NCBI RefSeq assembly: GCF_964204645.1 | Contig: NC_134028.1 | Span: 13,439,263-13,503,262, forward strand | Direction: 5' to 3' | DNA from: Tubulanus polymorphus | Taxonomy: Eukaryota; Animalia; Nemertea | Length of the DNA stretch: 64,000 nt | Shown: piece by piece, positions 694 to 46,089 of the stretch | How positions within the stretch are numbered: the first letter of the stretch is position 1 | Layout of the letters: each line of letters starts with the position of its first letter | Program-made: the position numbers and the translations under genes | The notes under the pieces: generated by a model | Databases searched by the model: none | The model's input: the letters and a program-made list of their open reading frames with translations, nothing else | What the model was told of the DNA's origin: nothing

Positions 694-725
694 AATTTTA
701 ACTTTAATAAAAATATATATAATAA

Positions 726-3849: not shown

Positions 3850-3855
3850 TCTATT

Positions 3856-6779: not shown

Positions 6780-7031
6780 TCAAATAGAATCATGTTCTAG
6801 TAAAAATATCGGATCCTTGATATCAAATTCCTCAACGTATTGTTCATTATTTGGATCATTATTCCATAATTCAATAAATTTCTTTGCCTTTGTTAACTGT
6901 TCTGAATATAACTGTAAATATTCTAGTTTCAATTTATTCTCTAAATGTGTTTTAGTTTTATTGTGTCTTGCTTTTTGGGATTTATCTATATTGATTTTAC
7001 ATGTTGGACAGTAGTACTTATTTGCTTCCAT
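6780..7031 (-). pseudogene. Deletion chimera: pPolB N-terminal Zn finger joined to an HNH gene tail
   Basis: The first 38 aa are nearly identical to 48111+ (MEANKYYC). The rest matches the C-terminus of 5095..5763 (LQLY.EQLTKAKKF). Confidence 0.8.
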
Positions 7032-16104: not shown

Positions 16105-16264
16105 ATTTAAAAAAAATAAATTAATAAAAATAATGAATATCTGGAATCCGAAATGACTTATCTGGACAATTTAATTGCTCCGCATAGATTGACAAAAGTA
16201 GTGAGATGGTGCTGTATGGCACCCACATTGTGATATTCAATTAATATTCAATTAATTAAAAAAA

Positions 16265-16660
16265 TTATTTTTTTTGCTTTTTTTCTAAAATATTCATCCA
16301 TTTTTTTATTGTCATTTTTGGAATTTCAGAATTATTTTTATTTTTGATAGCAGTTGTTTCAGAATTATTAATATCATGAATTTTATTTGATTTCTTATAC
16401 CAATTACACCCAATCAAAATGAATGCAATTACAAATCCAACTGTAAAATATAAATATTTATCAAATATTCTATTATCAGAAAGAGTAGAAATAACAATAT
16501 TTTCACCATTTTTATTAACATTTTTATTACTTATTTTTTCTTTTACAGCTTTTTTATATTCTTGTGATTTAATTCCTAATTGCCGAGACCATTCAATTTG
16601 TTTCTGTGATCTCGGTTTTTTCTTCACAGTTAAATCCTTCACTTCTTCCACCTCGCTCAT
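16265..16660 (-). CDS. Single-TM basic protein (homolog of 3856..4245)
   Basis: KKKPRSQKQIEWSRQLG motif plus a hydrophobic helix. Confidence 0.7.
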   Translation of the reverse strand: MSEVEEVKDLTVKKKPRSQKQIEWSRQLGIKSQEYKKAVKEKISNKNVNKNGENIVISTLSDNRIFDKYLYFTVGFVIAFILIGCNWYKKSNKIHDINNSETTAIKNKNNSEIPKMTIKKWMNILEKKQKK

Positions 16661-16663
16661 TTA

Positions 16664-17197
16664 TTATAGAAAAATTTTTACTTTAATATTTGAAAATGTT
16701 ATAACCCCAGTTGATAATAATGTCATAAATCCACCTAAGTGAAATGATAAATATCCAATCCATTTATTTAATTCGGTCATAACTAAATAATCATTTTTTA
16801 AATCGGAATATAATCTATTTTCATCTTCAATTGGTAGTATAAAATTACATAATTTACTATAACCTTTTACTACATTTTCTGATATCGCGTCATTAATTCT
16901 AGCTGTTCTCGAGGCTTCATAAGTCTTAAATAATCTAATAATTTCATCTGATTTCATTGTATCTTATTCATTATAAGTTAAATTTTTACCGACAAAATTT
17001 TTACATTTTCCAGATGCTATTAATATTTCTAATTGATGTTTACAGTAAAGTTAATATTCATAATTATTATTTGTTGTAACATTATTTAAAGCACCATCAT
17101 CTGGAATTAATTTGTTTTCTGTTATTCCTAAATCATCTAAAGTTTTTTCAATTGGAACATCACCTTTTTTAGATTTTATTTTCTTTCCACCTACCAT
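16664..17197 (-). pseudogene. Homolog of 4238..4846, interrupted by stops
   Basis: LYSDLKNDYLVMTEL is shared; TAAATG start at 17197. Confidence 0.7.
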
Positions 17198-17227
17198 TTA
17201 TATAACAAAAAAATTAGTTGTGATGTT

Positions 17228-17500
17228 GCAACTAGAATTCAACTAGAACGTAACTAGAATTCAACTAGATTAACAAGCTAGTTGAAATATTGTTGTTTTT
17301 GTTTATATCTTGTTAAATCTAGTTGATTTTTGTTTCAACTACTAACAACTAGAATTCAACTAGAATGTAACTAGAATTAAACTAGATTAACAAGCTAGTT
17401 AAAATATTGTTAAATCTAGTTGATTTTTGTTCCAACTACCAATAACTAGAATTCAACTAGAACGTAACTAGAATTCAACTAGATTAACAAGCTAGTTGAA
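17228..17500 (+). repeat. Intergenic nested repeats (11-bp AACTAGAATTC subunits in three larger blocks)
   Basis: AACTAGAATTCAACTAGAACGTAACTAGAATTCAACTAGATTAACAAGCTAGTT occurs at ~17230, ~17347 and ~17443. Confidence 0.85.
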
Positions 17501-17501
17501 T

Positions 17502-18108
17502 TTAAATAAATTCATATTTAAATGGGTGTTGTAATCTAAATAGTAATTTTGATCTTTTAATATTTTTCAACTTATCCATATATTCATTATGTAAATCATG
17601 TGGAATAATATCATTTTCCTCAAGTGCATTTTTCATCGATTTTCTATCTTTATTGTAGAATAAAACTAGAAATCTAATGTTTTCTCTAAAGTCTTTAACA
17701 ATTGAATTATATTTTTGATTTAAAACCCAAGTTGTTATCCCAAAATGTCTACCAGAAAAAGCTAAATAACATAACTCACTCTCTCTAACTTTTGAATCAT
17801 GTAGATTAGCACAATCATCTATAATGAATAATGTATTTGATCCTTTAAATATCTATTGCTATTTTAATACAATTATCTAAATTTTCTTTTACTGTTTTAG
17901 GATCTAATATAATAAATTTATTATTTCTAGTAATATTTCTATCATAAGTTTGATTAAATTCATATGTTGGACAAAATAATACCATATTATCAAAATAGTT
18001 TTTATAAACAGTTTCTAATAAATTTAATATAAAATAAGTTTTTCCACAATTTGTTACACCAGAAATTAACATATTATGAAGCTCAAATATGAATAATTCC
18101 TTATTCAT
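17502..18108 (-). pseudogene. Packaging ATPase, copy B (premature stop at 17845)
   Basis: GVTNCGKT motif; downstream DNA matches the ATPase of copy A. Confidence 0.85.
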
Positions 18109-19223
18109 TTATATATTTTTAATTTTACTTGATAATATCCATTCATTGAATTTATCTGGCCATCCAACCCATTTTACTAAAGAATATTTTTTTCTTTTAA
18201 TAGTTTTTGTTTTTAATATTTTTTCAATTTTATATTCTTGTTCTAGATTTTCAGTAGTTAAACTCAATTCTTCTTCGTAAAAGTAGCCATCAACTTCTTC
18301 ACCATCTAAATCTTCTAATTTATAGACATATGGTTTTGTTGTTATTACCTTTTTTATTTTATATATTTCCCTAGTAAAATTTCGATCGTATCCTTTGTCA
18401 AATATCTTTTTATACTTAGAAATTCTAACATTTTGACCAACTTTAGGTTCACCAAAATCATCTCCAAGAAATGCTCCATATAAATAATTCCAAACAATTT
18501 CAGCATTTTCAGGTTTTCTAGCATCAATAGGTTTCATTCCAATAGAAGAATGATAAGAATTATTATATCCTTCTATCAATTTTGGTAAAACATCAATCCA
18601 TTTAAAAGTATTATTTGCTGTAAAATATTTCCACATTCTTGTTCTTAATGTTCTATTAAACAACTGCTGCTTTTTTATCCGATTTTGTTGAAAAATATTT
18701 AATATTATGATTATCTAAGAGTTCATGAACAAGTGAATTATCAAACTCTTTTCCATCATCAAATTGTATTTTTTTCTGGTTTTAGTTTATCATCCGAAAG
18801 AAATTTTCTTAAAACATTTGATGTTTGTACAGCATCTTTTCTATAAAGTGGGAAGCTCCATACATAACGACTAAAAATATCAATTATATTCAATAACCAC
18901 CAATAATCATCATTATCTTTCTTAACATTTTTCATATCAATTAAATCTCCTTGCCACTGTTGATCTACATAACTTACCATAGTTTTACGAGTTTTATATT
19001 TTCTAACAATTTTTTTATGTGTTGTGTATGTTGGTTGTTCTAACATAAATTCATTTATATCTTTATATTTAACTAAATTTTGTGGGATAATCTTATCTAA
19101 TCTATCTTGTTTTACTTGACGCCATATATTTTTAGTAGAAGAATAAGCAACCGAACTCTCAGGGTTGTAATATAAATTTCCTAAATATTGTTCTTTAGTA
19201 TTAGGAGTTTTTTTACCACCCAT
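18109..19223 (-). pseudogene. RVE integrase plus chromodomain, copy B (frameshifted, divergent allele)
   Basis: WQGDLIDM, IDIFSRY, FNRTLRTRMW and VKWVGWPDKFNEWI motifs. Confidence 0.9.
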
Positions 19224-19253
19224 TTATATATCCTTAATTTTAACTTTATATTT

Positions 19254-20504
19254 CTAATATTGAATACTATCTAATTGTGAATTTACAATATTTAATTGCG
19301 CGTCAGATATAATATAAATATGCATTTTGAAATTTAGGCTTCCTTTTTTCTTTGTCATGAATAATTGTATTCCATCTTTAGTGTTCTGTAGTTTTTTTCC
19401 AGAACCATGTAATGAATTATCCTCTGTTGTTCTAAAATCTAACCATAATGCATATTTATTGCCGGTATAATAATCAATTTGATTAATATTACAATTTTCA
19501 AATGATTTTACTTTTTCATTCATAAAATGTTTTCTAATTTCTGGCCACTGATCTATCAATCTCATTCCTTGACAAAATATTTTATTTGCTATTCCTTCGA
19601 TAGTTATTTCTACTTTTGTTATTTCAGGATTATAATAATTATCAACCTTTATTGCGCCATTAGAATATGTTGCAATGGTAAAAAATATTAATGTACCTTA
19701 ATAGATCTTCTTGGGAAGTTAATATTCTCATTAATTATTTCATCATTTGCATTAATAGTTACAGTTTTAAATTTATCAATATAATCAATCATATAATAAT
19801 AAAAATCCTTGATTGTATTGAGTTTGAATTGTGCTAGCAATATTTTCATTAGTTACTGTGTCATATTCTAAACATATATTCGATAATTTATAACCCATAT
19901 CTTTAACAACGCTAGATAATACAATTTCATTTACATGAGCAAATGTTATCTCAAATATAATATCTTCTTGAATTGCGTATTTATATAAAGGTGCATTATT
20001 ATTTATCAATTCAAAGTCTAATGGAATTTTATATTTGCTTCCATAAATCTTTTTAATCAAATTATCTGTGGCACGAGTTACTATTGCGTCATTAGCTCCT
20101 GATCTTAATTTATTATGGTTTTCCGATTGAATACCCTGAAATATCATATTATTTCTATTTTCTTTAGTTAACCATAAATCTTTATAATGCATAAATAAAT
20201 TATAATCATCTAATGAGAAAAATGTTTCTGGACCAATCTTTATAGTTAATTTTTTAATCAAATATCTCCCAACATTATCAACAACATAATTATTATCATG
20301 ACCAATAACTTTTATATCAGCTGATAAATAAATACTATTTGGAACATAAAAAGTATTTTGTGTTAATCTAGGAATTCTAACATATAAAGTTTCATCGGGA
20401 TTAATATTTGAAGGATTATGAGTAATTATATGATGTGATCTTTCTGCTTTAATAGCATTAGATATTCTAGAAATCTTAGAAGGACTTATATAACTCCCAC
20501 TCAT
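19254..20504 (-). pseudogene. Major capsid protein, copy B (frameshifted)
   Basis: ORFs 19785..20504 and 19254..19565 together give a ~415-aa beta-rich protein (HNPSNINPDETLYVRIPRL). Confidence 0.75.
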
Positions 20505-20524
20505 TTATTTAACAAAAAAATTAA

Positions 20525-21954
20525 TTATTTATTTTTAATCATATTCACTAACCCAAAAATAATAGCACTTACAACTGTAATTAAAAATAAAATAATATGT
20601 TCAGCAGCAAAGTTAAGAATATTCCCAGCAGATTTCAATATAAAACCAACAATTGATGCAATAACTCCGGGTAAAGCTGCAGCAGATTTTTTAGATAGTT
20701 CCCATAAATATTTTGCTAATTTCTTTAAACCATCTTTAACTTTATCTTGTATAGAATTATCATTCGGGGGTTTATCCGGTTTATTGGGAGTAGGAGTAGA
20801 TTTTAAAGCATTTGATAATGCTAAACCAATTGTTGTAAATAACATAGTTACAGCTGTTAGAATTGAAAGAATTGTTATTCCTTCTAATTTAAATAATAAC
20901 TTTATTCTATCTTTCAATGATATTTCAGAATTTGGTTTTATCAACAAATCTTTAAAAATAACTTTTAATCTATTTATATTATAATCGTATGATTTTAACA
21001 ATAATTTAATTTCTTCTTTTTGTAATTCTATGTTATATTCTAAATCATCAATTTCCTTTTCTAAATATGCATTTCTTTTTTTAAATTCAATTTCTTCAAT
21101 AACTTTATTATCTCTATCTAATTTTAATTGTTCTATTTCTTTATTTTTATCAGTTAATTCTTTTTCTAAAGTTCTAATTTTTAAATCTCTTATACTTTTA
21201 TCATGCGCAATTTTATCAGCTTCATTTCTTATACTAATCATTTCTCTTATTGCTTTATCAGAAAATATATTATTTAAATCTTCTAATTCTTGATCTGTTG
21301 CATCAATTAATCCATTCGGTAAAAGTTTTTCAGTTTGAACTTCACTTGAATTAGGTTTACTAGTTTTGGAATTATCAGCTTCTTTAGTAATTGTTTCTGG
21401 TTCTAAATTTTCATTAATTATCTTAAAAAAATAATCATTTCTTTTTTTAAATTCTCTTATATTAACATCTCTTTCTTCTTGTGTAACATCAGTTATAACA
21501 TCATTAATGATTTTCTTAATTCTATCTGGTTTTAATAAATTAAAAGTTGATTGTGTTATTATTTTATCGAGACTTTTATTAGAAGAAATCTTAAAATAAT
21601 AATCATCTTTCAAATGCCAATAATAATCACCATTTGAATATTTTAAATCTTCTACTAAATAATCCATACCTTTATTTGTTATATTGAAACCAGATTTTCT
21701 TAATATTGGTTTAAAATCACTAGCAATTTCATTATATTTAAATTTTTTTCTATTAATTCTGTTACTTCATTTTCAATACTTATCTTTGAACGTGTTTTAT
21801 CAATAAATTCAGGTGTAGTTAAATTAGAATTACTTCCTGGCTCATTACCGTCATTAAAACTTGTTTCACTAAAATCAGGTTGTTGTTCATCAGTTATGCC
21901 AGGTTCATCAAAATTATCCATTCCAATATCTTCTCCACCTCCTTCTACATCCAT
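20525..21954 (-). pseudogene. Acidic N-terminus / coiled-coil / C-terminal membrane-helix protein
   Basis: 380-aa ORF with a long coiled coil and 2-3 hydrophobic segments. ORF 21700..21954 is its frameshifted N-terminus. Confidence 0.7.
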
Positions 21955-21977
21955 TTATATATTAAAGAAATTAAAAT

Positions 21978-23345
21978 TTAAAATATAATGTTCCTCCTAT
22001 AACAATTCCTATACAAGTTAAAGCTAATTAAGTATTTTCATGGAATTTATTATCATTATCAGTTTTAATTATATCATGTTGAATATTATCAGTTTTAATA
22101 TTTTCTGTAGTATTTTAATCTTTTATTTTAGAATCATTATTTAATTTAATATTCTTAGTTTTAGTTTCTGTTGATTGAATATGTTTTTTATTTTTTTCAC
22201 CTTCCATTAATTTTGGAGCAGTGATAATCTTTTTATTTATATCATTTAATCCAAATGAATTATTTATTGTTGCAGTTTTAATTAGATTATTGTAACCAAT
22301 TATGTTTCCCATCTTTAGTACTAAATCATTAGAAATAATTAATAGATTAGGTCCTATACAATAATTTAATCTAATATGTGCTTTTGATATCTTACAATGT
22401 TTTCTGGAATCGATCTATTTTTATCATTATGAATGGAATCTTCAAATTAAACTTTGAATTGTTTCTGCGCATCGAATGAAGTGTTATCATTTCCAATTAT
22501 TGGGGATCTTGTTTCAACTTGCGCACCTAAAATACATATCAAATAAGTTCTAATAGATTGATTTATTCTTTGTATACCTGATTTTGTAAAACCTTCATTA
22601 TTTTCTAAAATGAAATAAACCCAACCATTATTGTTTTCTTGTTTTAAATTATCATAAAATGTCGGTAATTTATTGAAATTTAATGTTTCAAAATCCTTAG
22701 TTTCTATTTTACCATAACCTAATTTATTACTATAGATATTATACAAACTATTAGATGGTATGGGAAGTGCACAATATTCTGCAATCTTTTTAGGGCAAGG
22801 AAGTGATCTTATTGTTCCCTTTTTGTTCTAAAATCAGAATTATTTATATCTATATTAAATTCATTACAAATGTTATAAAACTTTGATAAATTAATTTTAT
22901 TATCTAATTCTTTAAAATACCTAGATCCTGGTAAAGCGCACTCTAATTCATTTAATATTATTCTGATTTGAAAGTATGTATGAAATCTAAATAAACTTTG
23001 AATTAATTTATATTTAGAATTATTCAAATGATCATTCCAACTAATTCCACATCCTGTTGTTGCACAATAAACAGCAAAATTTAATTGGTTCTGCCAATAC
23101 TTCATATTAGATTTTAATAACCATTGTTTTTCATCTTTCAATTTTTTAAAATTAATTAAATATACATGAAATATATTTTCCATCTTTGCATTAAAATTAT
23201 TAGTTTCAGTAACATAAATTTCTAAATTAGTTAATGAATCTAAAACTTCATTTCTATATGTAATATCTTTATTAAAATATATTGCTGGAATATTATATTT
23301 AATTGATTTATTATATTGGAAAGCTTTTGGAAAACCATCTACCAT
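21978..23345 (-). pseudogene. Conserved Polinton protein (WQNQLNFAVYCATTGCG motif) with C-terminal TM helix, fragmented
   Basis: Three ORF pieces collinear with 41823..43118. Confidence 0.7.
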
Positions 23346-23373
23346 TTATTTAATTAAAAAATTAATAATTTAT

Positions 23374-23796
23374 TTATTCTTTTAATAATTTATCTTGTTC
23401 TTCAACTGTGATATGACCATTTAAACTTATTATATAATCTAATGTATTCTTTAATTTATTAATTTCTTTAATATTAGTTTTAATTTTTTCTTGATTACTT
23501 TTTATATTTAATTTTGAACTTATACCAGTTAAAACACTTGAACTTAATCCTAATACACCAATTGATATAGCTAAAGGTGTTAATGGACTGAATATTGCTA
23601 GAAATGTTATTACAGAACTAATTGTAACCGAACCACTGATAATAAGATAATATATAATTTTACTTTTTAAATATTTTTTCTTTTTCATCTTTAAGTCACT
23701 TTCAAATTCTAATATTTGTTTTTCTAAATATATTTTTAATTTAGTTTTATTTATATCATGAGGAATAATATCAATACTATCAACTTTATCTTCCAT
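23374..23796 (-). CDS. Two-TM-helix protein
   Basis: Two adjacent hydrophobic helices; near-identical to 43135..43569. Confidence 0.75.
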   Translation of the reverse strand: MEDKVDSIDIIPHDINKTKLKIYLEKQILEFESDLKMKKKKYLKSKIIYYLIISGSVTISSVITFLAIFSPLTPLAISIGVLGLSSSVLTGISSKLNIKSNQEKIKTNIKEINKLKNTLDYIISLNGHITVEEQDKLLKE

Positions 23797-23816
23797 TTAT
23801 TTAGAAAAAAAAATTA

Positions 23817-24279
23817 CTAGTTAGTAAATTTATATGCTACAAATATAACAATAACAGTTCCACCTAAAATCCAAATTATTTCATATTTCTGTTGTTCTTT
23901 ACTTGGGGTATAATAATCTGATAATTTAGGTTTGTATAGATGTAATTTTTCTTTCTTGGTTACCGCGTTATATAAACTCATTGCATCATCAACTGATTGA
24001 AAATCTCTATGTGAAATCTTCTGATCATATAATTCCTTGTTAATATAATCCATATAGTTTTGTCGTTTTTCTCTGTATTCTTCTGCTGTTTATTATATTT
24101 CTCTTATGCATAGTTTTATCCGATATATTATAACAAGAATTACATAAACTTATATTTACTAATTTTAAATCAACACAATTCTTAAATTCTCTATCTAATT
24201 GAACTAGTAAATTATGTGATTTATAATTTGTAAGTTTTCTAGAATCAACAAATATTCTGTATTCTTTTAGTTCTACCAT
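23817..24279 (-). pseudogene. Deletion junction: 5' end of the minor capsid gene joined to the 3' part of the 43590..44012 homolog
   Basis: 24279-24115 matches 45385-45220 and 24105-23817 matches 43876-43590, so about 1.35 kb is missing. Confidence 0.8.
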
Positions 24280-24347
24280 TATTTATAACATAAAAAAATT
24301 ACCGCTCATCACTAAAAATTAATTTTAATAAAATTTGTCCTTAATAA

Positions 24348-25664
24348 ATGGATGAGAAGATACCATGCGAAATTTGTGGTGAACTTCTAAGAAAAAGTAA
24401 TATGGCTCGACATATGAAAAAACATGATGAAAATTATAAACCCCCTAAACTAAACTGTCCAAAATGTAATAAATTATTCTCAAGAAATTATGTTAAAAAA
24501 CATTCAGAGAAGTGTAAAATTAATGGTGCAACGGCTAATGTTGATAGTAATGAAAGTAATAGTAATTCTGCTGAAGTTGTACCTGAAATTATTTGGAAAA
24601 GACCTTTCTTATTCTATGATAAGGATAATATAAAAGATCATTTCTGCGAGCCTTGTCGAGTAAAATATAGCCCTGAAATATAGAAGATTGGGAGAATCAT
24701 CAATTTCGTAAAGTACATATAGATAAAATTTCTTATAAATTTGAAACTGAATTCAATGAAAGAAAAATAGTTTATTAGAAAAAATTAAATATGAGAAAAC
24801 GTTAACAGTTGAAAAGTTAGAAAAACAATATAATGAATTAACAAGAAAAACATATTATTGTAAATATTGTAAATTGATTATTACAACAAGTAATTCAAAT
24901 CTACATAATAGAACAATAAAGCATAAAGAAAACGTAAGAAAATACCAAGAGCTTAATGAAGATCTATTACCAATAAATTATAAACGAAAATGCCCACAAT
25001 GTAATTACGCGACCTTAAGACAAGAAGGTACTGTGTTATTTTGTGTTGATTGTGGATGGCAAAGGAATTTATGGGGTGAAGAAAAAACTAGAAATTTTCT
25101 CATAGAACCAAAATTAAATTATCTAGATGAAATTTTTAAAATATTTTCTATAGAAGATCATACACCGGAATATATGCAATGGCTTGAAAAAATGAAAATA
25201 ATAGAAAATAAAAATGGTGAAATAACTAAAAAAGATATTATAAAAACAATTATTCCGTCAACATTTAACACAAAACAAAAGAAAATGTATTTATATTTAT
25301 TATTTAACGATTATTATGATAAAACCTAAATTAACAGAAGAAGATATGGAAAATATAAAAAAAAATATTCAAACAAATATTAATGTATCATTTGGAAAAT
25401 AGAATAACAGATTCAATTAATTATGAATTCTTTTTAAATAAGATTGTAAATTATTTAAACATAGATATTATAATTCCATTTGACGAATTAACAAACAAAA
25501 AGAAACAAAGAGAGCGAGATGAAATGTGGAACATGATAGAACTTTATTTAAATGAGAAAAATGAAATGGAAGAAGAACCTAAACAAATTATACAAGAACA
25601 ATTATATGAAAATGAAGAAGCCAATAGTGATTTCGAGTATGATGATATTGATTTTATGTTTTAA
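24348..25664 (+). pseudogene. C2H2 Zn-finger region followed by a poxvirus A2L/VLTF3-like late transcription factor domain (frameshifted)
   Basis: CPQC-x13-CVDC ribbon, KTRNFLIEPKLNYL, SINYEFFLNKI and RDEMWNMI. These match recalled VLTF3 motifs (CSGC...CIFC, SNFHVSNKLIHL, TINYSFFLDKI, and a terminal W). Confidence 0.72.
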
Positions 25665-28600
25665 TGGCCATAAGGTAATGTTTTTATACCATCATCTAAA
25701 ATATGCCTTTTATCATCAAATGGATTCAAACTAGTTTTTTCAACTTCATTAATGTACATCTCGTGATCTTCTGATCTTAAACAATTCATTTTGTGTTTCA
25801 TTACAATTGATTTATATAAACACTTTATATAATCTTGAAATTCTATATGTTTATCAACCACATGTTTTGTTATTCCTTTTAACTTTTTAGCTTCATGATC
25901 TTTTGTTCTGTAACTATACATTTTACTTCTTATCCCAACAAATTCAATCATTTCATCACCCCCTAATTCATCTTTAAACTTACCAGGAATCTGTTTATTA
26001 TCATTGCTAAATAGTTCATGATCTTTGGGATAATTGTTAAAATCAAAATGATGTTTTGATGTTTTTAAGTCTTTTGTTATGTCATTTGTCTTGATTTTTA
26101 GTATGTAGGCGTCAGTATTTTTGGCTATTAATGGAAATCCACAGTTAAATGTACCATCTTCAGTTGATAAATCATAAACATAATCTGTTGGGTTATATAT
26201 TTCAAATAAATCTTTAACTTCATCTGTTACCTCATTTTCTACATGGCTTAAATTAAAGCAATTTGGTTTAGATTTAATCAATCCAATATTCATATCAAAA
26301 CCTAATGAATTGCATAATATATTCAATCCTGATATAGCAACTTTTCCTTTTTGAGCTAAAGATATTGTTTTGCGATTTTTGAAACTTTTAGTACCATCTG
26401 CTGCGTAGAATCCAATGAAGAACCATTTTCTTAAATTATTTTTTACATTTAATACATAATCTGGAACTATCTTTTCTTTAGTTGAAGTATTACTTTTCAC
26501 TATTGCATGAATATAGAATTCGTCATTATATTTTATAGCAAAATCTTTAGGATTATTCACATGTATTCTATAACATTGCGATGATTTCATAACATCTATG
26601 ATTTTGAATGTTTTATGTGAATAAACTTCTTCACAGAATTTCTTTATTCTTTCTAATAATTTCAAATCTTGATTGCATAAATACCAGCAATATTGAGTGC
26701 GATTAACATAATTATACAAACCTGCTGAACCATCACCCATGAAAAATCCTTTGATAAAATATTCTTTTTCTTCTAATGTTTCGGGTTCTATATTATAAAT
26801 ATTATCAATAATTTCATCAAATGACATATGATTCATTCTTTGGAAAAATCTTTTATGTAATAATTCATCTCCAATTTTTATATCAGTTGGTTTTATTTCA
26901 TCACCATTTCGTTTAATCAAACTATGATCTTCTGTAACGTCTACAAACCTTAATTTAGTTCTAACTCTATAGATTTTCTTATTTGTTTTATGCTTAATAA
27001 TATTCTTTAATTTTTTCCATCCATTTCTTGTCCAAACATCCATTAATCCATTTATTTGTATTAATTCTTTTTCACCATATGAAATATAACATTAATTTTG
27101 TTTTGGAATTATTTCTGAAATTCTTCTTATCAATATTTTATCATTACATTTTAATAATATTGGGGTGTCAGCTGTTACAGAATCAAAATATAATATTTCA
27201 ATATGATTTTCCCCAAAAAGTGGTTGTAAAACCTTAATAATTTTAATACTTCTAAAACAGTTGAACCAATGAATATAGGTTTATTAAATTTCATTGACGT
27301 TCTTTTTAATTTAACTGCTGTTAAATAATCTTCAAATCTTTTATTTCCTAAATGTCTAGGACTTGATTGTAAATGTCTTAATCGTTCAGAATTATTTACT
27401 AATTCAATATTATTTCTATTTCTAATATTTTCACATGTTTTACCATAAAAACTATTATTCATTAATTTGAAGAAATCTTTTTCAAAATCTGTTTTTGATA
27501 TTGTTCTCTGTTGAGTATTGAAATCTATATATTTTTCTAACCACTTCGATTGATTAAATTCAATATATCTATGTACTTTCTTTAATTTCATTCCTTGTTT
27601 TAGATAAAATTTTAACATTTTATAATGAACAATATAATTGTATTTATTATTTTGAGTAAGTATTAATTTTTCTGTAAAAACATGATCTTTCGGTTTTATT
27701 TTCTTCTGGTATTCACTTAAATAACTATCATCTACAGTTAAATGTTCTGGGCAATAAGGTAAGTTTCTTGTTTTAAACTTTATATTTTCAGGATATTCTA
27801 AATCAACTACAAAGAAATAACCAATTGGTGCTTCATCTTTTAAACTCGCAATTGCGCTTTCCCAATTAGTTTTATCATCATTTTCAACGTCTGTTAATAT
27901 AAAATTTTTATATGGTTGAGGTTGCATCATTGCCCAACCATATAAATTATTGGCGTCAATATATAATAATTTATATTCATCATTTGCTTTAAAATACCTA
28001 TCTCCCATAACACCACTAATTCCTCCTCTAATTGATTTTTCAAATAATAAAACCATATCTGGTTCTTTTAATAAATCTAATTCTACATTTGTATATTTTA
28101 AACCACATTGCCAGGTTAAACCAGGACTAGAGTAGCAATAACAAGGATCAACATGAAAATGATTCAAATTAACTTCTCTAAATTTTTCAAATATGTCAGC
28201 CAATATCATAACATCTGATTTTAAATACAAATCAACTAATTCACCATGATTTTTCATCTTAAAATGGTTCCAAATATTTAATGTTCTATTAAACACTTCG
28301 TCTTTCACATACTCCTCTTTCAATTGATCATAAAATGGATCTTTTAATAATTCTGTTACATTAAAATCATTGTGTGTTTTATAAAATGAATAAGGAATTG
28401 CGCCTTTATATCTCAATAATTTAAAATCTTGTTCATTTGGATAATAATATCGAGTTATAACAAAATCATTATCAACTAAACTTTTTGATAAATTATCTAA
28501 TGAACTTGCTAGAAATCTATAAGAATTTAAAAATCTAATGCAACCAAATTGAAATGAAATATAATTTTCAGATGTTTTAGCTAATAGTTTAAAATCATAT

Positions 28601-29770
28601 TTTCTTACATTTACACCATTAATAGCATTATATTCTTCTAATTCTTGATTAATTGCGCCCAATTTCTTTGATAATTGTTTTATAAATAGATGGGTATCAT
28701 AGCCTGATAAATTATGAAATAATATTGGTACGAAATTAACTTTCTTAGCTTGTAAATTACAATCTTCATGAGCAGCTCAACGATATTTTGAATTTAAATG
28801 ATCATGATCTCTAACTTTTTTATCAAATGAATAAAAACGTTTTTCACAATAACAACAATGAGTTGCATAATTAAAATCAATTTCATCTTCTTTTGTCATA
28901 ACTATTCTTTTATTTTTGTTTAATAATTTTGCAAAATCACTTTCTAATTCAATCATTTTGTTACAAAAATCATTAACTACATCTTCACCTCTAAAAGAAA
29001 TATATTGACTTTCATATAATTCAGGATAATTTGATTTTATATAAATTCCATAAGCAGCAGCTCTTTGATGAACTTTTTTAATTGTATTTATAATTGGCGG
29101 GTCTTGTGTTGTGTCTTCATTTAATTCATTTCCTTTATCCATTGATTTTAATAATTGCTTTTTGTTATATATTTCTTTTCTATCTTGATCAGTTAATTCT
29201 TTATTCAACGATTCAAAATCCCCATAAATTACAAATGGAACAATATTCTTAAATTTATTTTTAGTAAATTTCAATTTATAATCTTTTTCTGTTGGCATTA
29301 TTAATTTACAAAAATCTTTATTATCACATAATTCTTTATGTTTTAATAATGTATTCTTAGTCATAAATTTAGATAAACATTTTCTACATAGATAAATTTT
29401 ATGATGATGATCACTTTCTGTTCTAAAGAATAAATCAATTTTTTATCATCAAAATAATCTTTTCCTAAAACATTATTACTCAAATTTTGATGGTGTTTTT
29501 GTGATTCGAGATGTCTATTATAATTCCTTTTTACTATAAATTCATTACAAACTTCACATTTTATTTCATCCACATTCATATTTTCTAATCTTTCTTTTCT
29601 TTCATTGGAATTTTCTGGAGTTTCAAAATCTATTACATTTTTTATATGATTTGCAGTTTTTTCATGTCGTGTTTTATGAGATGTATTGATTTATTTTTTT
29701 TATAATATGTGCAATAATATTGATTTTTATAAACATTATTATTTTCTGGCTGGTGTTCATTCTCCCCCAT
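25661..29770 (-). pseudogene. polB: Protein-primed family B DNA polymerase (pPolB), copy B, intein-containing, with stops, frameshifts and an N-terminal deletion
   Basis: YGDFES exonuclease I, VRDHDH endoVII-like motif, YIDANNLYGWAM, KLMNNSFYGK, YFD/TD and KLKGI. Confidence 0.92.
26117..27181 (-). mobile_element. Intein (355 codons) with LAGLIDADG homing endonuclease at the pPolB motif C site
   Basis: LYFD|SVTADTPILL, block B VTEDH, GFFMGDG and GFYAADG, YVYDLSTEDG...IAKN|TDAY. One in-frame TAA at 27092-27094. Confidence 0.93.
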
Positions 29771-29857
29771 TTATTGGGAAAAAAAATTACTTGTGGTGAT
29801 GAGTGGTGTTTCGCCCGCTCCCCGCTGATCTGAAAGCCCACTTTCCCAATTACTACT

Positions 29858-32760
29858 AATCTATAAAATGAAACCTGATTTAACACAACTTATTTCCTGA
29901 ACAGTTACTGCACATAGTCATTGTAACGCGATGGTGGTCTCACCACTCTACCCGATCGAGTGGTAGTTAGTTCAGTTTGTGCATCATCCGAAGCCGTAGT
30001 CATTGACTCTGGAACTGACAAGTCATCGATGGTTGCCGGAAAGTGTTCCTCCTGTGTTCTGCTCAACTGACGCCTATTTCTGCGATAATATTGTCCTGAT
30101 TCAGCGACAACATTGTACGAACGCGGTTGTGGTGGAGAGCTAACCACGCGAGCTGGTTTCCATCGCTTATTATCACGAATTCGAACGCCAATCGTTAGAG
30201 GTTGCGCTCGCTCCACGATCGTAGTATCTCTTTTGCCGCCAGCGTTTCTCCTCTATGTTACGACGCGTTGTAGTTGGATCGCTGACTCTCGGACACAACA
30301 TGTTTTCAGTTGCAGGTATGATTGAGTTTAATCTGCGATTCATCAATACCTGACTCGGTCACGATCGATTGGAGTATTTCGGTACCCCAGAAGCGCTAGG
30401 TACGGATCGTTTCCGCTTTCCTTACACTTTGTGAGTATGGTTGAATCCCCATTCTCATGAGAATCGCTTAAACTCCTGTGAGCTGTACTGTGGACCGTTG
30501 TCACTTACAACCTCCTTAGGAATTCCATGTCTCGCGAAGAGAGATTTCATATGTGTAATCACGGTAAGCGATGTTTTATTTGACAGTTTCGCTATTTCTG
30601 GATAACGTGAGAAATAATCCACCACGCGAACGTAATCGCCACCGTCCCATTCAAACAAATCCGACGCGACCACTTCCCATGGTCTTGCCGGAACGACGTG
30701 TGACATCATCGGCTCTTTTACATTCGCGTTTTGATGTTCTAGACATATTTACTGAGACACCATATCTTTGACCTGGGCCGTCATGCCTGGCCAAAATAAC
30801 AGATCGCACGCACGCTTGATGCTCTTTTTCTACGCCAAAATGACCAACGTGTATTCGCTAAAGCATTTCTTTGCGTAACGCTTTGGGAGCTAGGATTCGA
30901 TTTCCTTTCAGAATCAGTCCGTCTACTACAGTTAACTCGTTTCGCACACTGTAGTACGTGTTCAATTCCAACGGTAATTTCTCTCGCTTTGTCGCCCAAC
31001 CGGTTGCTATCTCATGTGTTAATTGACACATGGACTGGTCTCTACCCAATTCCGACTTAAGCTCCTGTAGCTTTTCATGTGACATACGTTCGTTCGCTAC
31101 GACCATGTTGACATATTCTTCGACTTCATTGTCCATGTTTCCCGATGTGTCTGGCAGTGGTGCCCGGGATAACATGTCCGCTATTAATAGTAGCTTTCCG
31201 GGTTTATATCGCACTACAAACGAGTATCGCTGAATACGTAATAACATTCTCTGTAGACGCGGGGGTGCTGCTGCTAGAGGCTGTTTTAGTATTGCCTCTA
31301 GAGGCTTATGACCCGTTTCGATGTCAACCGTTTGACCGCAAGTGTATTGGTTGAATCGTTCCAACCCAAACACGATGGCTAACAGTTCTTTCTCAATCTG
31401 CTTATAGTTCATCTCCGCTTTTGTCAACGAACAAGATGCGTATGCAACAGGACGATTTTCCTGTAGCAGAACTGAGCCCGGACGAAACTGAGAAGCATCA
31501 CCACTCACAGTGACCGGTTTCGTCACATCGAAGTACGTCAAGACTGGTCCCGGCTCACGCGTTAACACATCCTTCAGTACTTTGAATGCTTCGATCTGAG
31601 GTTTTTGCCACGCAAATTCCACATCATCGTGTAGTAACTCTCAAATCGGTGCTGTAATTTTCGACATATTTGGCACGAACTTAGCCAAATAGTTAACAGT
31701 GCCCAACAGACGTTGCACTCCCTGCTTATCGGTGGGTGCCGGCATCTCGCTGATTGCCGTGATTTTCGCTTGCTGCGGTCTTACACCGTTAGCGGTAAAC
31801 GTGTGACCAATGTAATCGATCTCTGGAACCGAGAACTCACACTTCGGTAGATTAAGTGTCAGTCCTATTTCTTTACGACGTTGCAATACCGCATGTAACC
31901 GCTGGTCGTGTTGCTGTTGATTTACGCCCCACACGATCATGTCGTCTATGTCCGTTTCGACACCCTCGATATCGTCGAAAAGTTTTGCTATACGCTTTTG
32001 GAACAATTCCTGCGCCGATTTGATCCCGAATGGCATGCGACGAAACGCATATCGCCCGAACGCGCAATTAAAAGTGGTTAGTAGCTGCGAACCTTCATCT
32101 AACGGTATCTGCCAGTATCCCGAGTTCGCGTCGAGTTTTGAGAATACTTTAGCTCCTGACATCCGCGATGCAATTTCCTCGACCGTGGTTAACTGGTAAT
32201 GATCCCGTTTTATTGCGTTGTTGAGGTCTCTGCTGTCTAAACATGCGTAAATCTCCCGATTTTTTAGCTACTATAACAATATTGCTCACCCAATCTGTGG
32301 GTTCCTCGACTTAACGGATTACTCCGTCGCTTTCCATTTTGCCTAATGTCACTTTTAATTTATCTCGTAACGCAATCGGTTCTTTTCTGGGTGGCCTGAT
32401 CACCGGTTCGATCGACTCATCCACTGTGATCTTGTATGGCTCTTCCAAACAACCCAAGCCCGTGAATACCAACTTGTTTTCTTCAACTATGTTGTTTGTA
32501 CTAATGTTCATTACGACGTTTATCAGCTCCAAATCCCGCGACGCACAAAATTCGAGGACTGGAGTCTGATCTGTTTCTACCACATAAAACTTTAAGAACT
32601 TTCCTCCGCATCTAATCACGCACGTACCCGTTACCGGTATGTTATTGCCGCTAGTCAACTTGGTTTTTGCCGCTGTCAGTTTGGGAGCCCGTTTATTGCA
32701 CTGTAGTTGTCTAAAGTTCTTAGCTGGAAGTATGTTTACCTGAGACCCTGTGTCAATATA
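29858..32760 (-). mobile_element. pol: Ty3/Gypsy retrotransposon, pol part (integrase, RNase H, RT, protease C-half), decayed
   Basis: LDANSGYWQ, MPFGI, DIDD, DASQF...YAS, EKELLAIVFG, PWEVVASDLF and SDNGPQY. GC content is much higher than in the Polintons. Confidence 0.93.
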
Positions 32761-33142
32761 AGTAATAGGGGTAATGGGCTTTCAGGCCAAAGGTCGAACG
32801 GTCGAGCTCATTAAAAAACAAAACATTAAAAGTAATTTAAAACTATAATATATTTTCATAACCGTGTGTATTTCATAACCGTTGGTCGCTCCACTTCGCT
32901 GCCGCTCCGCTCCGCGACCAATTGATTTATTTGCAATACACAAATTCATATAATCAAATATATTCAAATAATAATACTTATTCTATTATTCAACTGAAAT
33001 ACACACGGTTATGAAAATATATTATAGTTTTAAATTACTTTTAATATTTGTTTTTAATGAACTCGACCATTCAACCTTTAACCTGAAAGCCCATTACCCC
33101 TATTACTCTTAAAATATTCATGTAAATGAATAACATTTAAAT
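32761..33142. repeat. Left TIR of copy C (palindromic 32761-33107)
   Basis: Inverted copy of 7080-7515 with a small internal deletion. Confidence 0.9.
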
Positions 33143-33197
33143 TCACAGATTATTCAATATAAAAGTGTAAGCTCTTATAGAATAGATATATAGATAG

Positions 33198-33809
33198 TTA
33201 TTTTATAAATTTATATTCATATGGAAATTGTAGTCTCAGTAATAATTTTGAACCTTTATTATTCTTTAATTTATTCATATATTCATCATGTAATTCAGTT
33301 GGTATAATTTGATTTTCTTCCAATGATTGTTGCATAGATTTTTTATCTTTGTTATAAAATAAAACTAGGAATCTTATATTCTCCCTAAAGTCTTTAACAA
33401 TTGAATTATATTTTTGATTTAAAACCCATGTTGTTATCCCAAAATGTCTCCCAGAGAAAGCTTAATAACATAACTCACTTTCTCTCACTTTTGAATCATG
33501 TAAATTTGCGCAATCATCTATAATGAATAATGTATTTGATCCTTAATAAGTATCAATTGCTATTTTAATACAATTATCTAAATTTTCTTTTACTGTTTTA
33601 GGATTTAATATAATAAACTTTTTTATCTTAACTATATCTCTATTATATGTTTTATTCATTTCATAAGTAGGACAGAATAATATTATATTATCAAAATGAT
33701 TCTTATAAATAGTTTCTAACAAATCTAATATGAAATGTGTTTTACCACAATTGGTTACACCAGTAACTAACATATTATGCGGTTCGAATATGAATAAATC
33801 TTTATTCAT
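33198..33809 (-). pseudogene. Packaging ATPase, copy C (premature stops)
   Basis: Near-identical to 2133..2744. Confidence 0.88.
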
Positions 33810-34914
33810 TTATTCTTTTAATTTTACTAGATAAAATCCATTCATTGAATTTATCATCATATCCTTTATATTTCACCAAATAATACTTTTTTCCTTTAAG
33901 AGTTTTTGTTTTCAATACTTTTTCTATTTAATATTCTATTTCTTCTGGATTTGGCACAAGTGATAATTCTTGTTCATAGAAATAACCTAATATTTCTTCA
34001 TCTTTTAGATCTTCTAATTTATAAACAAAAGGTTTAGTTAATATTATCTTTTTAATCTTGAATATTTCTTCAGTAAAATTTGGGGTATAACCTTTATAAA
34101 ATGTTTTTCGATATTTAGATATTCTTACGTGTTGTCCTATTTTAAATTTAGGTTCTCCGAAATCATGCGTAACAAACGCACCATATAAATTATTCCAAAC
34201 TATTTCCGAATTATCTTCTTTTCTAGCTTGTATAGGTTTCATATTTATAGAACTATGTTTAGAATTATTATAACCTTTCACTAAATCATCTAATACATCG
34301 ATATATTTATATGTTTCATTAGCAGTAAAATATTTCCACATTCTAGTTTTCAATGTTTTATTAAATCTTTCTATAATAGATGCTTTTTTATCTGAGTGTG
34401 TTGAAAAATAATCTACATCGTTATCAGATAATAGTTTTTTAAAATGTTTGTTATAGAATTCCTTACCTTCATCAAATTGTATCTTATCTGGAATAGCTTC
34501 TTTAAATATATTCTTAAAAGCATTTGTTACTTCTATGCCAGTTTTATTTTTGATTGGAATTGACCATGCGTATCTACTGAATATGTCTATAACATTTAAT
34601 ATCCAGAAATATCCTTTGTTGTATTCTTCTAAGTTCTTCATGTCAATTAAATCTGCTTGCCATTGTTGATCAATATATGAAACCATAACTTTTCTTGTTA
34701 AATAAGTTTTATCCATTTTCTTGTGGATTTGATATGTTGGTTGATTTTGTAACCATGATTTTAATTCACTATATTTTATATCACCATGTGGGTGCCGTAT
34801 GGCACCATTTTCATTATCAGATTTAATTTTACCCCATAATTCTGTAACGTTAGAATATGATACTTCACTTTCTGGGTTATAATATAAATCTCTTAAATAT
34901 TGTTCTTTTTCCAT
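33802..34914 (-). pseudogene. RVE integrase, copy C (stop at 33928 removes the chromodomain)
   Basis: Near-identical to 2737..3849; the DDE core is intact. Confidence 0.9.
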
Positions 34915-34920
34915 CTTATT

Positions 34921-35289
34921 CTAATCCATTAATAATAATTTAGATTTAGTTTCAATAGCTTTATGATTTGACTTATTTTCTGGTATAATAGGTTTATTAT
35001 CATTGGAATCATCTTTATCATCAGATTTGAATTTTGATTTATATATTACACCGGATAATATAATAATTGTGATTAACCCAATTGTAATATATAAGTAATT
35101 ATTTCTTCCACTATTAGAAGAATCAGATGGATTATTACTTGAATCAATATCAGATAAAGTCTGTGATTCATTTATATCAGTTGATTTCTTTTTCTTAGCT
35201 TTTTTTAACTCTGAAGATCTTTTACCTAATTCTCTTGCCCATTTAATTTGTTTTTCAGATCTAGCCTTTTTCTTAACGCTATCACTCAT
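34921..35289 (-). CDS. Single-TM basic protein
   Basis: Homolog of 3856..4245. Confidence 0.75.
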   Translation of the reverse strand: MSDSVKKKARSEKQIKWARELGKRSSELKKAKKKKSTDINESQTLSDIDSSNNPSDSSNSGRNNYLYITIGLITIIILSGVIYKSKFKSDDKDDSNDNKPIIPENKSNHKAIETKSKLLLMD

Positions 35290-35888
35290 TTATTTTAGTT
35301 AATTTTTGTTCTGATTCATTTTCTGTTTCGACGTTTGGTTGTAGTACAGCGTCATCTGTTTCGTTCTTACCTGATTTATATTCCATAGGTTTGATGTTCG
35401 AAAATGTTATGACGCCAGTAGAAATTAATGTCATAACCGATCCTAATTGAAATGAAGCATAGCCGACCCACTTTGTAATTCAGTCATAACTAAATAGTCA
35501 TTTTCAAATCACTATATAATTTATTTTCATCATTAATTGTCATTAACCGGTTACATAATTTTGAATAACATTTTATAATACTATCTGAAATAGAATCATT
35601 TATTCGAGCCAATCTAGCTCCTTCATAAATCTTAAAATATTTTATTACTTTATCTGGTTTCATAGCATCTAATTCTTGAAAAGTAATTATTTTCCCGATA
35701 AACTGATTACATTTCCCACCAGCAATTAATAATTCTAGATGGTGTTTACAATATAAATAGTATTCATAATCAATATCACAATTAATATTATTTTCAATTT
35801 TGATTGGAATATCCTTATTATCACTAATGCATAAATCATCTAATGTTTTTTCAATGTTGGTATTATTCTTATTAGATTTCTTTGACAT
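35282..35888 (-). pseudogene. Homolog of 4238..4846, frameshifted
   Basis: Collinear DNA similarity. Confidence 0.75.
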
Positions 35889-36999
35889 TTATATTAGAGA
35901 AAAAAGCAAGAAAAATATTATAAATATTCTTCAAATGATACTAGCTAGTTAAAGCTAAAGAATTTCTATTTGAATCTATTCAAAATATAAAGTATTCTCT
36001 TTTGAAAAGAAAGTTTTAAAAATATAATAGAATTCACTAGCTAGTTGAAGTTAGTTTTTTAAATACTTTTTATTTAAATTAGGATTTAGATTATCTCACT
36101 ACTATTGTTTATCTATTAGGAGCAGTAATTATAACTGTCCAGATAAGTCATTTCGGATTCTCGATAAATAAATCCTAAAACTGAAAATAAATTCAAAGAA
36201 ACGACTGGTGGAAATACTATTTCATAAACACACATATATTTTATTCTACAATCATTATCGATTTCCACATTCCAAGCCGCTCAACTCAGGCCCGGTAAGT
36301 TATGCGTGGAATGCAGGAATCAATAAAATACAATACAACATCTGTCACTGTGTGTCATTAACAACAGCTTAATGACGCAATTGAAATTCCGACAAACGTA
36401 ATGCATTGAAAGCCTATACAGTATGGCTAAACTGCTACAGTCTCATGAGTTGAAATATCCATTATTTCTGATTCCACGTCCATATATCTTCACTTTCTTG
36501 ATTCAATGGTCTTCATTTTGTTATCTAAAAGATAAATATCTAGCGTAGAATAAAACTAACTTGAAGTTGTAGTTGTAAAATATTAATTACAGCACTTAAA
36601 CATAGCCATTCGTGGCGCATCTTTGTCCGATAAGTTTTACATGTTTAGCGTTTCCCAACGCCTTAATAACAACAAAAACAGTACTTACATTTATAACTGT
36701 AAAATTGTGTTTATAGAGAGAATATCCTATACGTTCCTATGCTTATGTGCTGCGCGCTTATAACTGCCAGTTATTCACTAGCTAAACACTGTCTGATACA
36801 ACATATGTTCCTTCCTTTGTAATATAATTGATTAATCCTTTTCAACTGCAATAGAACATTCGATCGATATTCAAATGAGATACACCCTATTCAACTGAAT
36901 ATAACGTGCGACAGATGCTTTTGTAAACAACCTAATACAATTACATACAGGCGGTTTGACATAGATCGAGAGTAACCGGTTTTCTAAGCGGTTAACATT

Positions 37000-37615
37000 C
37001 AACGTATTTTTCATTATGTGTTGAATTCCATCATTCAACAAATGTCTTTGCTTTATCCAGTTGATCTAAATATAATTTCATATCTAGTTTATTAGATTTA
37101 AAGGTCTTAAATTTTTCCAGCTCCATATTAGCTTCTTATTATAATCATCATTCATGTTAAATTTAGAAATCGGCAACACATGATCAATATGAAAGTATTC
37201 ACCATAATTATCTATATTCATTTTATCATCGAATTGATATATTATCCATGATATGAAAAATTCATCTGAACAGATTAGATAGTGTTTCTGAATGTGTTTC
37301 TTTGTTGAATAATTGTGTTAATCTAGATCTTAAGCATTGTTTCAATCTAAAATTAAGATCTGTTTGATATCTTTCTCTCATATATTCTGCCATATAATAA
37401 TTATAATGTTCTATATTATCTTCTCGATATCGTTTGGTATATAGTTTAAAAGAAGTTTTACAGCAATATTGAAAACCATCTTTGCTAATCTTACGCTTAC
37501 TAAATTCTGTTAAAGCTAATTTATCTAATTCAAATTTAGAACACTTCTTGTAGTATATATTTATGACACCAGTGTTATTTGTAATATTGATAGTTTGTGG
37601 TTGTTCTGGTTCCAT
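37000..37615 (-). pseudogene. HNH endonuclease, copy C, frameshifted
   Basis: ORF 37262..37615 is near-identical to the N-terminus of 5095..5763. The HIDHVLP motif is readable near 37180. Confidence 0.8.
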
Positions 37616-37784
37616 TTATTATACATTTATTATTTTTTTACTAAATTGATTTTAGAAGTTATTCATTTATATGTTATTCATGAATATATATGAATTATTT
37701 CAATAAAACTTTACTAACACTTTTAATGTTTAAAAATCTAACTCATACAAATATAAATATTGAAATATGTTTAAAATATACCTA

Positions 37785-38145
37785 TGTATTAGATACCCTA
37801 TTAGATACCATATTAGATACCCTAATACCTGATACCCTATTAGATACCTTAATTACTTAAAATCCCCTTTTTAAAAATAAATATTATTTATACAATTTTC
37901 AACCAATTTATTTTTATTTTTTAACTAATATATGAATTAGTTTGAAAATAATAAAGGTTATTTATTATTACTGAGGTTTCAATATAATTTAAGTTATTTT
38001 CAAATAATATGTATTAAATACGTATTAGATATGTATTAAATACGTATTAGATATGTATTAGATACGTATTAGATATGTATTTGATACCTTAATACTTAAA
38101 ACCCCCTTTTTTATTTACTATTATTTTATACAATTTTCAACCTTT
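37785..38145. repeat. Intergenic GTATTAGATAC-type short tandem repeats in two related blocks
   Basis: 11-bp units at 37785-37850 and 38030-38090; inverted counterpart of 1560-1670. Confidence 0.8.
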
Positions 38146-38160
38146 ATTACTTTTTGAGTG

Positions 38161-39069
38161 TTAGATAATCACTTTCTGAATCACTTTCATCATCACTCTC
38201 CTCCAATTCATCATCACACACTTATTCTTCACCCTTTTTACCGTATCTTCATAAATAATTGGTTTATTGATATACTTATTAGTCATCTCAACTATATCTT
38301 TATTTTCTGATTTAAGTTTCATAGAATCTTTATTATCAATGCGCTTTCCTGTAACTATATCACCATGTGGGTGCCATACAGCACCATTTTCATTATTATC
38401 TTTATTAGTGTTTGCTCCTAATATTTCATTTACAGTGTTTGATTCTAATATTTTATTAGCATCGGTTAAATCTAATTCATCTTTATTAGGTGTTGCTAAT
38501 AATAAATCTTTATATAATTCTTTACCATTTACTTTTTGATTTGAAACAAACTTTGTAACATATCTAAATGGGTGTTCTATAAATTCTTTTAAACCAACAC
38601 GTTTTATAACATTAGTAATATGTGAATTTGTATTCATATGATTATTCCAATTTGATGGAGCGTTTGAAAATTCGCCTTTACAATAATCACAATAATTTCT
38701 ATTTTCACTAACATTTAATATTATTTCATTATTAGATGTAGAAGGTATTACATTATTAGATGTAGAAGGTATTACATTATTAGATGTAGAAGGTATTACA
38801 TTATTAGATGTAGAAGGTATTACATTATTAGATGTAGAAGGTATTACATTATTAGATGTAGAAGGTATTACATTATTATCAATTACATTACTTAAATTAT
38901 CAACAACACCACTTTTATTATTATCGATTTCTATTAGTTTAGTTTTATAAATTTTGAAAATAGGATCAAATATCAAAGCTATATTACAAGGTATTACATA
39001 ATATAAACCATCATTATTTTCATGTGTATCGATGTATGGAATATGTTTATATACTTTACCTCCTTCCAT
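38161..39069 (-). CDS. Hypothetical Zn-finger protein with a 24-bp tandem repeat (VIPSTSNN x6)
   Basis: Open 302-aa ORF; repeat at ~38730-38880. Confidence 0.75.
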   Translation of the reverse strand: MEGGKVYKHIPYIDTHENNDGLYYVIPCNIALIFDPIFKIYKTKLIEIDNNKSGVVDNLSNVIDNNVIPSTSNNVIPSTSNNVIPSTSNNVIPSTSNNVIPSTSNNVIPSTSNNEIILNVSENRNYCDYCKGEFSNAPSNWNNHMNTNSHITNVIKRVGLKEFIEHPFRYVTKFVSNQKVNGKELYKDLLLATPNKDELDLTDANKILESNTVNEILGANTNKDNNENGAVWHPHGDIVTGKRIDNKDSMKLKSENKDIVEMTNKYINKPIIYEDTVKRVKNKCVMMNWRRVMMKVIQKVII

Positions 39070-39101
39070 TTATTATATAAATTTTTATTAAAGTTAAAAT
39101 T

Positions 39102-40349: not shown

Positions 40350-40369
40350 TTATTTAACAAAAAAATTAA

Positions 40370-41801: not shown

Positions 41802-41822
41802 TTACTTAATAAAAAATTAAAA

Positions 41823-43118: not shown

Positions 43119-43134
43119 TTATATAATTAAAAAA

Positions 43135-43569: not shown

Positions 43570-43589
43570 TTATTTAGCAAAAAAAATTA

Positions 43590-44012: not shown

Positions 44013-44036
44013 TTATTTAGCAAAATAATTACGCAT

Positions 44037-44615: not shown

Positions 44616-44630
44616 TTATATAGTGAAAAA

Positions 44631-45385: not shown

Positions 45386-45402
45386 TTATTTTACATATTT
45401 TC

Positions 45403-45756: not shown

Positions 45757-45785
45757 TTTAATAACATATTTTTATTAAAATTTGA

Positions 45786-46082: not shown

Positions 46083-46089
46083 GAAATCT

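Follow-up and report, generated by a model that had tools for sequence, protein, structure and literature searches.

Which RNA polymerase transcribes a Polinton, and why should such an element carry a relative of a poxvirus late transcription factor? Both questions are raised by a locus of the nemertean Tubulanus polymorphus, which we analyzed within a stretch of 64,000 nucleotides, hereafter the window. A sequence-only reading had proposed that positions 24348 to 25664 hold a frameshifted gene related to poxvirus A2L/VLTF3, fused behind several zinc fingers and carried by a Polinton, whose product could redirect or compete for the RNA polymerase of a helper virus. Our analysis shows that such cargo is already known and that the copy carrying it here is dead; what appears to be new is the fusion to fingers and, above all, the poxvirus-type gene starts found across the element.

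The fusion gene and its Polinton carrier

The eukaryotic DNA of the window is rich in AT and contains several nested Polinton copies in a decayed state, as well as retroelements and a satellite. The gene lies in a copy that encodes an integrase with a chromodomain, an A32 ATPase, a capsid-like protein and a protein-primed polymerase B, which bears out the proposed carrier: protein-primed polymerase B together with a retroviral-type integrase is the hallmark pair of Polintons (Mavericks). The Pox_A32 match is above the cut-off, and the capsid assignment comes from a weak Pfam match and from the ESM Atlas, where the protein groups with jelly-roll and Preplasmiviricota clusters (0.97). No cysteine protease had a Pfam match among the 48 ORFs scanned, in a copy that is decayed, and no gene for an RNA polymerase, VLTF1 or VLTF2 was recognised in the element. 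The limits of the copy are tentative: 9 of 20 bases match at its ends, which are possibly misplaced or rearranged, and the termini checked had no inverted repeat beyond AGTAGT and no target duplication. The features are listed below.

1-6900, 16197-29857, 33100-46100 and 48000-51500: Polinton copies in the window (sequence comparison)
16197..29857, no strand assigned: Polinton copy with the gene, tentative extent (AGTAGT at each end)
17502..18108, minus: A32 packaging ATPase, broken (Pfam)
18109..19223, minus: retroviral-type integrase with chromodomain, broken (Pfam)
19254..20504, minus: major-capsid-like gene, broken (Pfam Capsid_N, E 0.016, weak; ESM Atlas 0.97)
24348..25664, plus: broken fusion gene, four zinc fingers and a predicted VLTF3 (poxvirus A2-like) domain (five frame pieces; intact relatives; hhalign)
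24348..24683, plus: piece 1, fingers C2H2 and C2HC and the start of the third (Pfam zf-C2H2, E 2.4e-5)
24677..24780, plus: piece 2, remainder of the third finger and linker, limits approximate (tblastn, P0001 residues 210-263, 37%)
24859..24924, plus: fourth finger, U1/matrin type (Pfam zf-U1, E 7.4e-9)
24991..25053, plus: four-cysteine zinc ribbon, start of the predicted VLTF3 domain (aligns with the cysteines of poxvirus and giant-virus-type VLTF3)
25054..25562, plus: predicted helical VLTF3 domain over pieces 3, 4 and 5 (Pfam Pox_VLTF3 on the last piece; hhalign; model of a relative)
25563..25664, plus: acidic C-terminal tail (sequence; P0001 is also acidic behind the domain)
25661..29770, minus: protein-primed DNA polymerase B, broken (Pfam DNA_pol_B_2; 82% to the L001 polymerase)
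about 26120-27181, minus: intein in polymerase B (Pfam Intein_splicing, LAGLIDADG_3)

Four frame breaks, near 24680, 24780, 25325 and 25375, interrupt the fusion gene, and the window copy of it is a pseudogene. The neighboring genes have frameshifts, in-frame stops and a deletion, so the whole copy is probably dead; because of these stops and the deletion, real decay is likelier than assembly error.

Intact relatives do exist. When 1.84 billion representatives were searched exhaustively for matches to the third piece, four emerged, two of which are true relatives, P0001 (697 aa) and P0002 (446 aa); the others, P0003 and P0004, were dropped as unrelated finger proteins. Each relative is a single frame in which four fingers precede the ribbon and then the helical domain, and the two cover the window pieces in order, as the proposed fusion behind fingers implies (37-57% identity to P0001 overall, and 50% over 56 aa for piece 1). 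They are only 36% alike, yet both keep the fusion. On the Polinton contig L001, the genes for P0001 and for a polymerase stand tail to tail; this polymerase is 82% identical to that of the window, whose fusion gene and polymerase are arranged in the same way. Another contig, L002, contains the fusion gene alone. Given single-frame relatives and a shared layout, the fusion was inherited and did not arise by chance during decay. Because the layout is that of L001, the site was not taken for a nuclease or giant-virus insert. The metagenome scan placed the fusion family at two loci at least, while word-indexed protein searches gave no relatives beyond P0001 and P0002, the viral contigs scanned for the family gave no match, phage records gave no meaningful match and NCBIfam gave none for the window protein. 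A sister copy (39066-46079) matches on both flanks of the gene, but its slot holds an unrelated 117-aa gene instead, and it keeps the TAAATG initiators described below; the factor is therefore accessory, that is, optional.

Several other observations concern the surroundings. Diverged Polinton copies, at least three or four in number and 72-96% alike, cluster within 52 kb of the window, some of them inverted, with pieces of Gypsy-type retroelements (reverse transcriptase, RNase H) among them at 29900-32780 and 46370-47670, and a long satellite of 31-bp units at 54400-61100. A gene for a SLATT-like two-helix membrane protein belongs to the capsid module (23374-23796 and 43135-43569, minus strand; weak matches). 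The intein, with its LAGLIDADG endonuclease, sits at the YFD/TD motif of the Polinton polymerase (26120-27181) but neither the L001 polymerase nor the copy at 48-51.5 kb has it; the available text of PMC11071308 mentions Polinton polymerases with endonuclease insertions. U1-type fingers recur where the polymerase begins and also in a small gene apart from it (29364-29690, 38161-39069, 48111-48299). The polymerase of this lineage begins with fingers similar to the fourth finger of the fusion, and the polymerase N-termini of L001 and of a further contig, L242, also bear U1-type fingers of this kind. The U1-type finger module seems to have been shuffled inside the element.

Relation of the helical domain to VLTF3

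The claim of homology began with six short motifs, a cysteine ribbon among them. All six are present in the order given, over three reading frames, and the CxxC-x13-CxxC spacing is correct, with the cysteines at 24991-25053. The A2 motifs cited for collinearity were likewise found in a fetched A2 protein confirmed by Pfam. The check proposed against Pfam Pox_VLTF3 gave a match below threshold: the last piece matches (E 6e-5 to 9e-5), but at 22.7-23.2 bits it does not reach the cut-off of 25, and P0001 and P0002 have no match, whole or as domains. Nor did A2L_zn_ribbon match the ribbon of the window gene or of its intact relatives.

Profile comparison gave a clearer answer. With hhalign, the family scored 97.3% against poxvirus A2 (E 2e-11; 193 of 200 columns, nearly gap-free) and 95.6% against giant-virus-type VLTF3, two families that reach only 4.6% when set against each other. 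Forty column-shuffle controls against A2 stayed at or below 2.4%. When the most conserved motif, which had served for selection, was removed with all that lies behind it, the score was still 78%; the middle part of the domain alone gave 2.5%. The window copy, P0001 and P0002 all retain the entire domain and its four ribbon cysteines.

References were fetched by a window-derived motif, present in 117 stretches; it lay within a frame of at least 88 aa in 38 of them, all pox A2-like. Pfam confirmed three pox A2-like references and three of those that, from a motif, we take to be of giant-virus type. The family profile gave 41-52 bits on 22 of 22 pox A2 proteins, against a median of 7.7 and a maximum of 40.2 on 65 giant-virus-type proteins. 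The ESM Atlas placed the domain at 0.93 with VLTF3 clusters, some mostly of Preplasmiviricota. A model of an intact relative's domain had a pLDDT of 88 from an alignment with 44 VLTF3 rows, and is thus partly circular; a fold made without those rows (pLDDT 43) was unusable. In a fold search with the model, entomopox (Q5GF29; Q9YW27, MSV065) and cowpox VLTF3 appear to be its closest counterparts. Foldseek against solved structures gave no match at E 0.001, and solved structures found by sequence were generic fingers and ribbons only.

The homology to VLTF3/A2 proposed at the outset is supported by the hhalign scores, and the partly circular fold search points the same way. Judged by these comparisons, the predicted domain is a VLTF3 homologue that has diverged and that, within the groups sampled, is most like the pox proteins; this placement is provisional, because the alignments were made without entomopox, asfar, irido, ego and mriyavirus sequences. 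A VLTF3 tree had three groups on very long branches and gives neither donor nor direction. Like poxvirus A2 (Pfam PF04947, PF08792), the protein has a four-cysteine ribbon followed by the same helical domain over 193 columns; unlike A2, to which it is about 20% identical, it carries four additional fingers ahead of the ribbon, ends in an acidic tail, falls below the Pfam cut-off, and is carried by a Polinton without a recognised RNA polymerase or other late factor.

Gene starts and upstream sequences

TAAAT is the intermediate/late initiator of vaccinia, according to the available part of PMC6211774. In the Polinton copies of the window, 19 of 37 ORFs of at least 100 aa start with TAAATG, frameshift fragments being counted as misses; most of the 18 misses are indeed fragments beginning at inner ATGs, and the 19 starts are not independent, because the copies are related. 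The same start heads 107 of 178 ORFs in 23 pox loci (60%), 3 of 70 in giant-virus-type loci below 30% GC (4%) and 17 of 173 in other AT-rich viral loci (10%), controls that comprise few if any animal Mavericks. Among true 5' ends the figure is 32 of 36, on a list hand-picked after the motif was seen. A link between TAAATG and poxvirus promoters in Polintons is not described in the literature text available to us, and poxvirus-type TAAATG starts across Polinton copies are, within that text, not found in print.

Two further readings of the motif concern stops and polyadenylation. A stop directly before such an ATG is TAA in 27 of 27 cases, against 54 TAA, 19 TGA and 10 TAG at ORF ends; only 2 of these 27 TAA end a long upstream frame, and the idea of a stop-start junction was rejected. 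AATAAA is missing at 15 of 29 starts, so TAAATG is not simply a poly(A) signal.

Upstream comparison suggested two classes of promoter-like sites.

24324..24350, plus: class I site of the VLTF3 gene, TTTAATAAAA, 11 bases, TAAATG (same layout in L001 and L002)
20502..20530, minus: class II site of the capsid-like gene, T-run, then TAAATG (upstream comparison)
23345, 23796, 17197 and 29770: further class II sites (upstream comparison)

Class I, TTTA(A/G)TAAAA at 8-16 bases before the initiator, lies ahead of the VLTF3 gene (window, L001 and L002), of two other small genes, of the gene in the VLTF3 slot of the sister copy and of another copy's polymerase; genes of the capsid module have a T-run upstream (class II). 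Six class I sites compare with a shuffled mean of 0.07 and 11 class II sites with 0.6, an optimistic null because both motifs were defined from the same starts. Class I resembles the DNA upstream of the poxvirus A1 and P4b genes in fetched loci, and neither exact motif was found in the five pox loci checked. Late promoters of poxviruses contain a T-run. Late-factor genes such as A1 have intermediate promoters, as stated in the accessible text of PMC8400408. Judged by these motifs, the two putative classes set the VLTF3 and polymerase genes apart from those of the capsid module, as in the poxvirus cascade.

It is conceivable that TAAATG merely results from genes being AT-rich and closely packed, with VLTF3 carried as neutral cargo. 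In keeping with this, the DNA upstream of the starts is 82% AT, and the sister copy lacks the VLTF3 gene, which is broken in the window copy. Equally AT-rich viral loci, however, give 4-10%, TAG and TGA never stand in the place of TAA before the ATG, and relatives as little as 36% alike still have the fusion with its class I site, all of which makes a by-product very improbable.

How far does the initiator extend beyond the window? Of 38 further loci whose polymerase is related, 27 had at least five ORFs that could be scored, and the initiator was enriched in three of these: L242 (7/7), L268 (5/14) and L273 (5/13). The remaining 24 had 0-2 TAAATG starts each, and L267, whose capsid and ATPase are the most similar, had none in 18. 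VLTF3 was found in none of the other Polinton-like loci, L242, L268 and L273 included, in the sequenced DNA examined. In a quick polymerase tree, in which the row L262 was out of frame, L242 groups with the lineage of the window at a support of 40 only. As to the loci themselves, L242 (1-9034) is a Polinton-like contig whose integrase frame has a long extra N-terminal part; L268 and L273 are near-twin Polinton-like elements binned into bacterial genomes, where most starts read TAAATG or TAAAATG, with an A-rich core upstream.

Transcription of the lineage and its possible helper

Gene starts that are mostly TAAATG, together with a poxvirus-like factor, point to the RNA polymerase of a poxvirus-like helper. 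That the lineage is transcribed by such a polymerase, with the fusion as its own optional late factor, is the reading we prefer, at a probability of about 0.5. The idea of a helper's polymerase in the earlier reading thereby gains support from the initiators found across the element; against it, L242, L268 and L273 have the initiator and, in the DNA examined, no VLTF3. The class I genes (VLTF3 factor, polymerase and other finger proteins) would be the first to be expressed, in the manner of poxvirus intermediate genes; the fusion would then join the other late factors and the polymerase of the helper, favoring the class II genes of the capsid module, and its added fingers may hold it on the DNA of the element itself or at its replication sites. 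In its fullest form, which we hold more tentatively, the lineage would be an integrated virophage of a poxvirus-like virus, running an intermediate/late programme on the helper polymerase and using a finger-tethered A2 homologue to steer late transcription to its own capsid genes. Its gene starts share the post-replicative promoter motif of a large virus, a virophage-like trait seen here as a resemblance of sequence.

The main rival to this reading is that the element is autonomous and nuclear, and the fusion its own late activator for host RNA polymerase II: the fingers would bind DNA, the ribbon and helical domain would act like TFIIB, the acidic tail would activate, and TAAATG would be either a remnant or the initiator used by that factor. 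The fusion has C2H2 fingers and an acidic tail, both of them typical features of activators of polymerase II. The integrase implies a nuclear stage, VLTF3 is present in viruses without an RNA polymerase (see below), and the model weakly resembles cyclin-fold proteins including TFIIB (Z 5.4-6.6, rmsd 3.3-8), a likeness that, at Z under 8, may reflect only a common helical arrangement. This proposal, however, has to account for an initiator that also heads the VLTF3 and polymerase genes, which are needed before the factor exists, and that persists in the sister copy without a VLTF3 gene. Moreover, the T three bases before the ATG would be unfavorable for a start, and with a TATA-like word right next to the ATG, transcription by polymerase II would begin inside the gene. 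We consider the proposal rather unlikely.

Another possibility is that the element needs a pox-like helper but that the fusion is a decoy: by poisoning or sequestering the complex with which the helper transcribes its late genes, it would benefit the element or the host. Low identity to A2 (about 20%), added fingers and optional presence would all suit a decoy, and virophages lower helper yield in the published cases we could consult. A decoy would not, however, explain why the window copy and its two relatives preserve the domain in full, with all four cysteines of the ribbon, and late transcription seems to be required for the capsid genes of the element itself. This too is improbable, more so than activation of polymerase II.

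The preferred reading, a lineage using the polymerase of a poxvirus-like helper, has partial precedents. Mavirus and CroV provide one for a shared late promoter (10.1101/068312): as far as the accessible text goes, mavirus likewise integrates, encodes polymerase B and an integrase, and has gene starts that mimic the late promoter of a large virus. Its helper, CroV, is a giant virus of a protist and is proposed to supply the late factor, whereas the lineage of the window has a poxvirus-type motif, a factor of its own and a helper that is only predicted. The available text on medusavirus and the mriyaviruses (PMC11253617, PMC8400408) describes VLTF3 without a viral RNA polymerase, the host's being thought to be used, and VLTF3 would therefore need no viral polymerase, a point against the preferred reading; these are Nucleocytoviricota, though, and the mriyaviruses also have VLTF2 and no DNA polymerase. 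The yeast cytoplasmic virus-like elements pGKL have TAAAN initiators similar to the poxvirus one (PMC6211774, in part) but, unlike the lineage of the window, encode their own RNA polymerase and capping enzyme.

The implied novelty of VLTF3 in a Polinton was overstated. It is already in print for polintoviruses of stony corals and, earlier, for a Polinton subgroup (PMC11131425, citing Krupovic and Koonin 2016), and for about 30% of the Polinton-like virus clusters VC123/VC126 (10.64898/2026.06.19.733378); it also appears in a figure legend on MELD viruses (PMC8502044). In the coral polintoviruses and in VC123/VC126, as here, VLTF3 is an accessory gene of a Polinton-type element; the portions of these sources available to us, compared by description only, describe no finger fusion, poxvirus affinity or promoter motif. 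VLTF3 was held to be undetectable outside Nucleocytoviricota, and diagnostic of them, in the accessible text of PMC11253617; its presence in a Polinton adds to the evidence against that view.

The locus bears on how Polintons are transcribed and on whether some of them need a helper. Virophage-helper pairs were recognised through promoter mimicry, and here the mimicry points to a poxvirus-like helper. If the lineage is indeed an integrated virophage of such a virus, it would have no predecessor among parasites of pox-type viruses in the searches made, and would offer a minimal system for asking what VLTF3 does. VLTF3 is a hallmark of large DNA viruses without a solved close relative, and the finger version carried by a 14-kb element may offer a simple handle on it.
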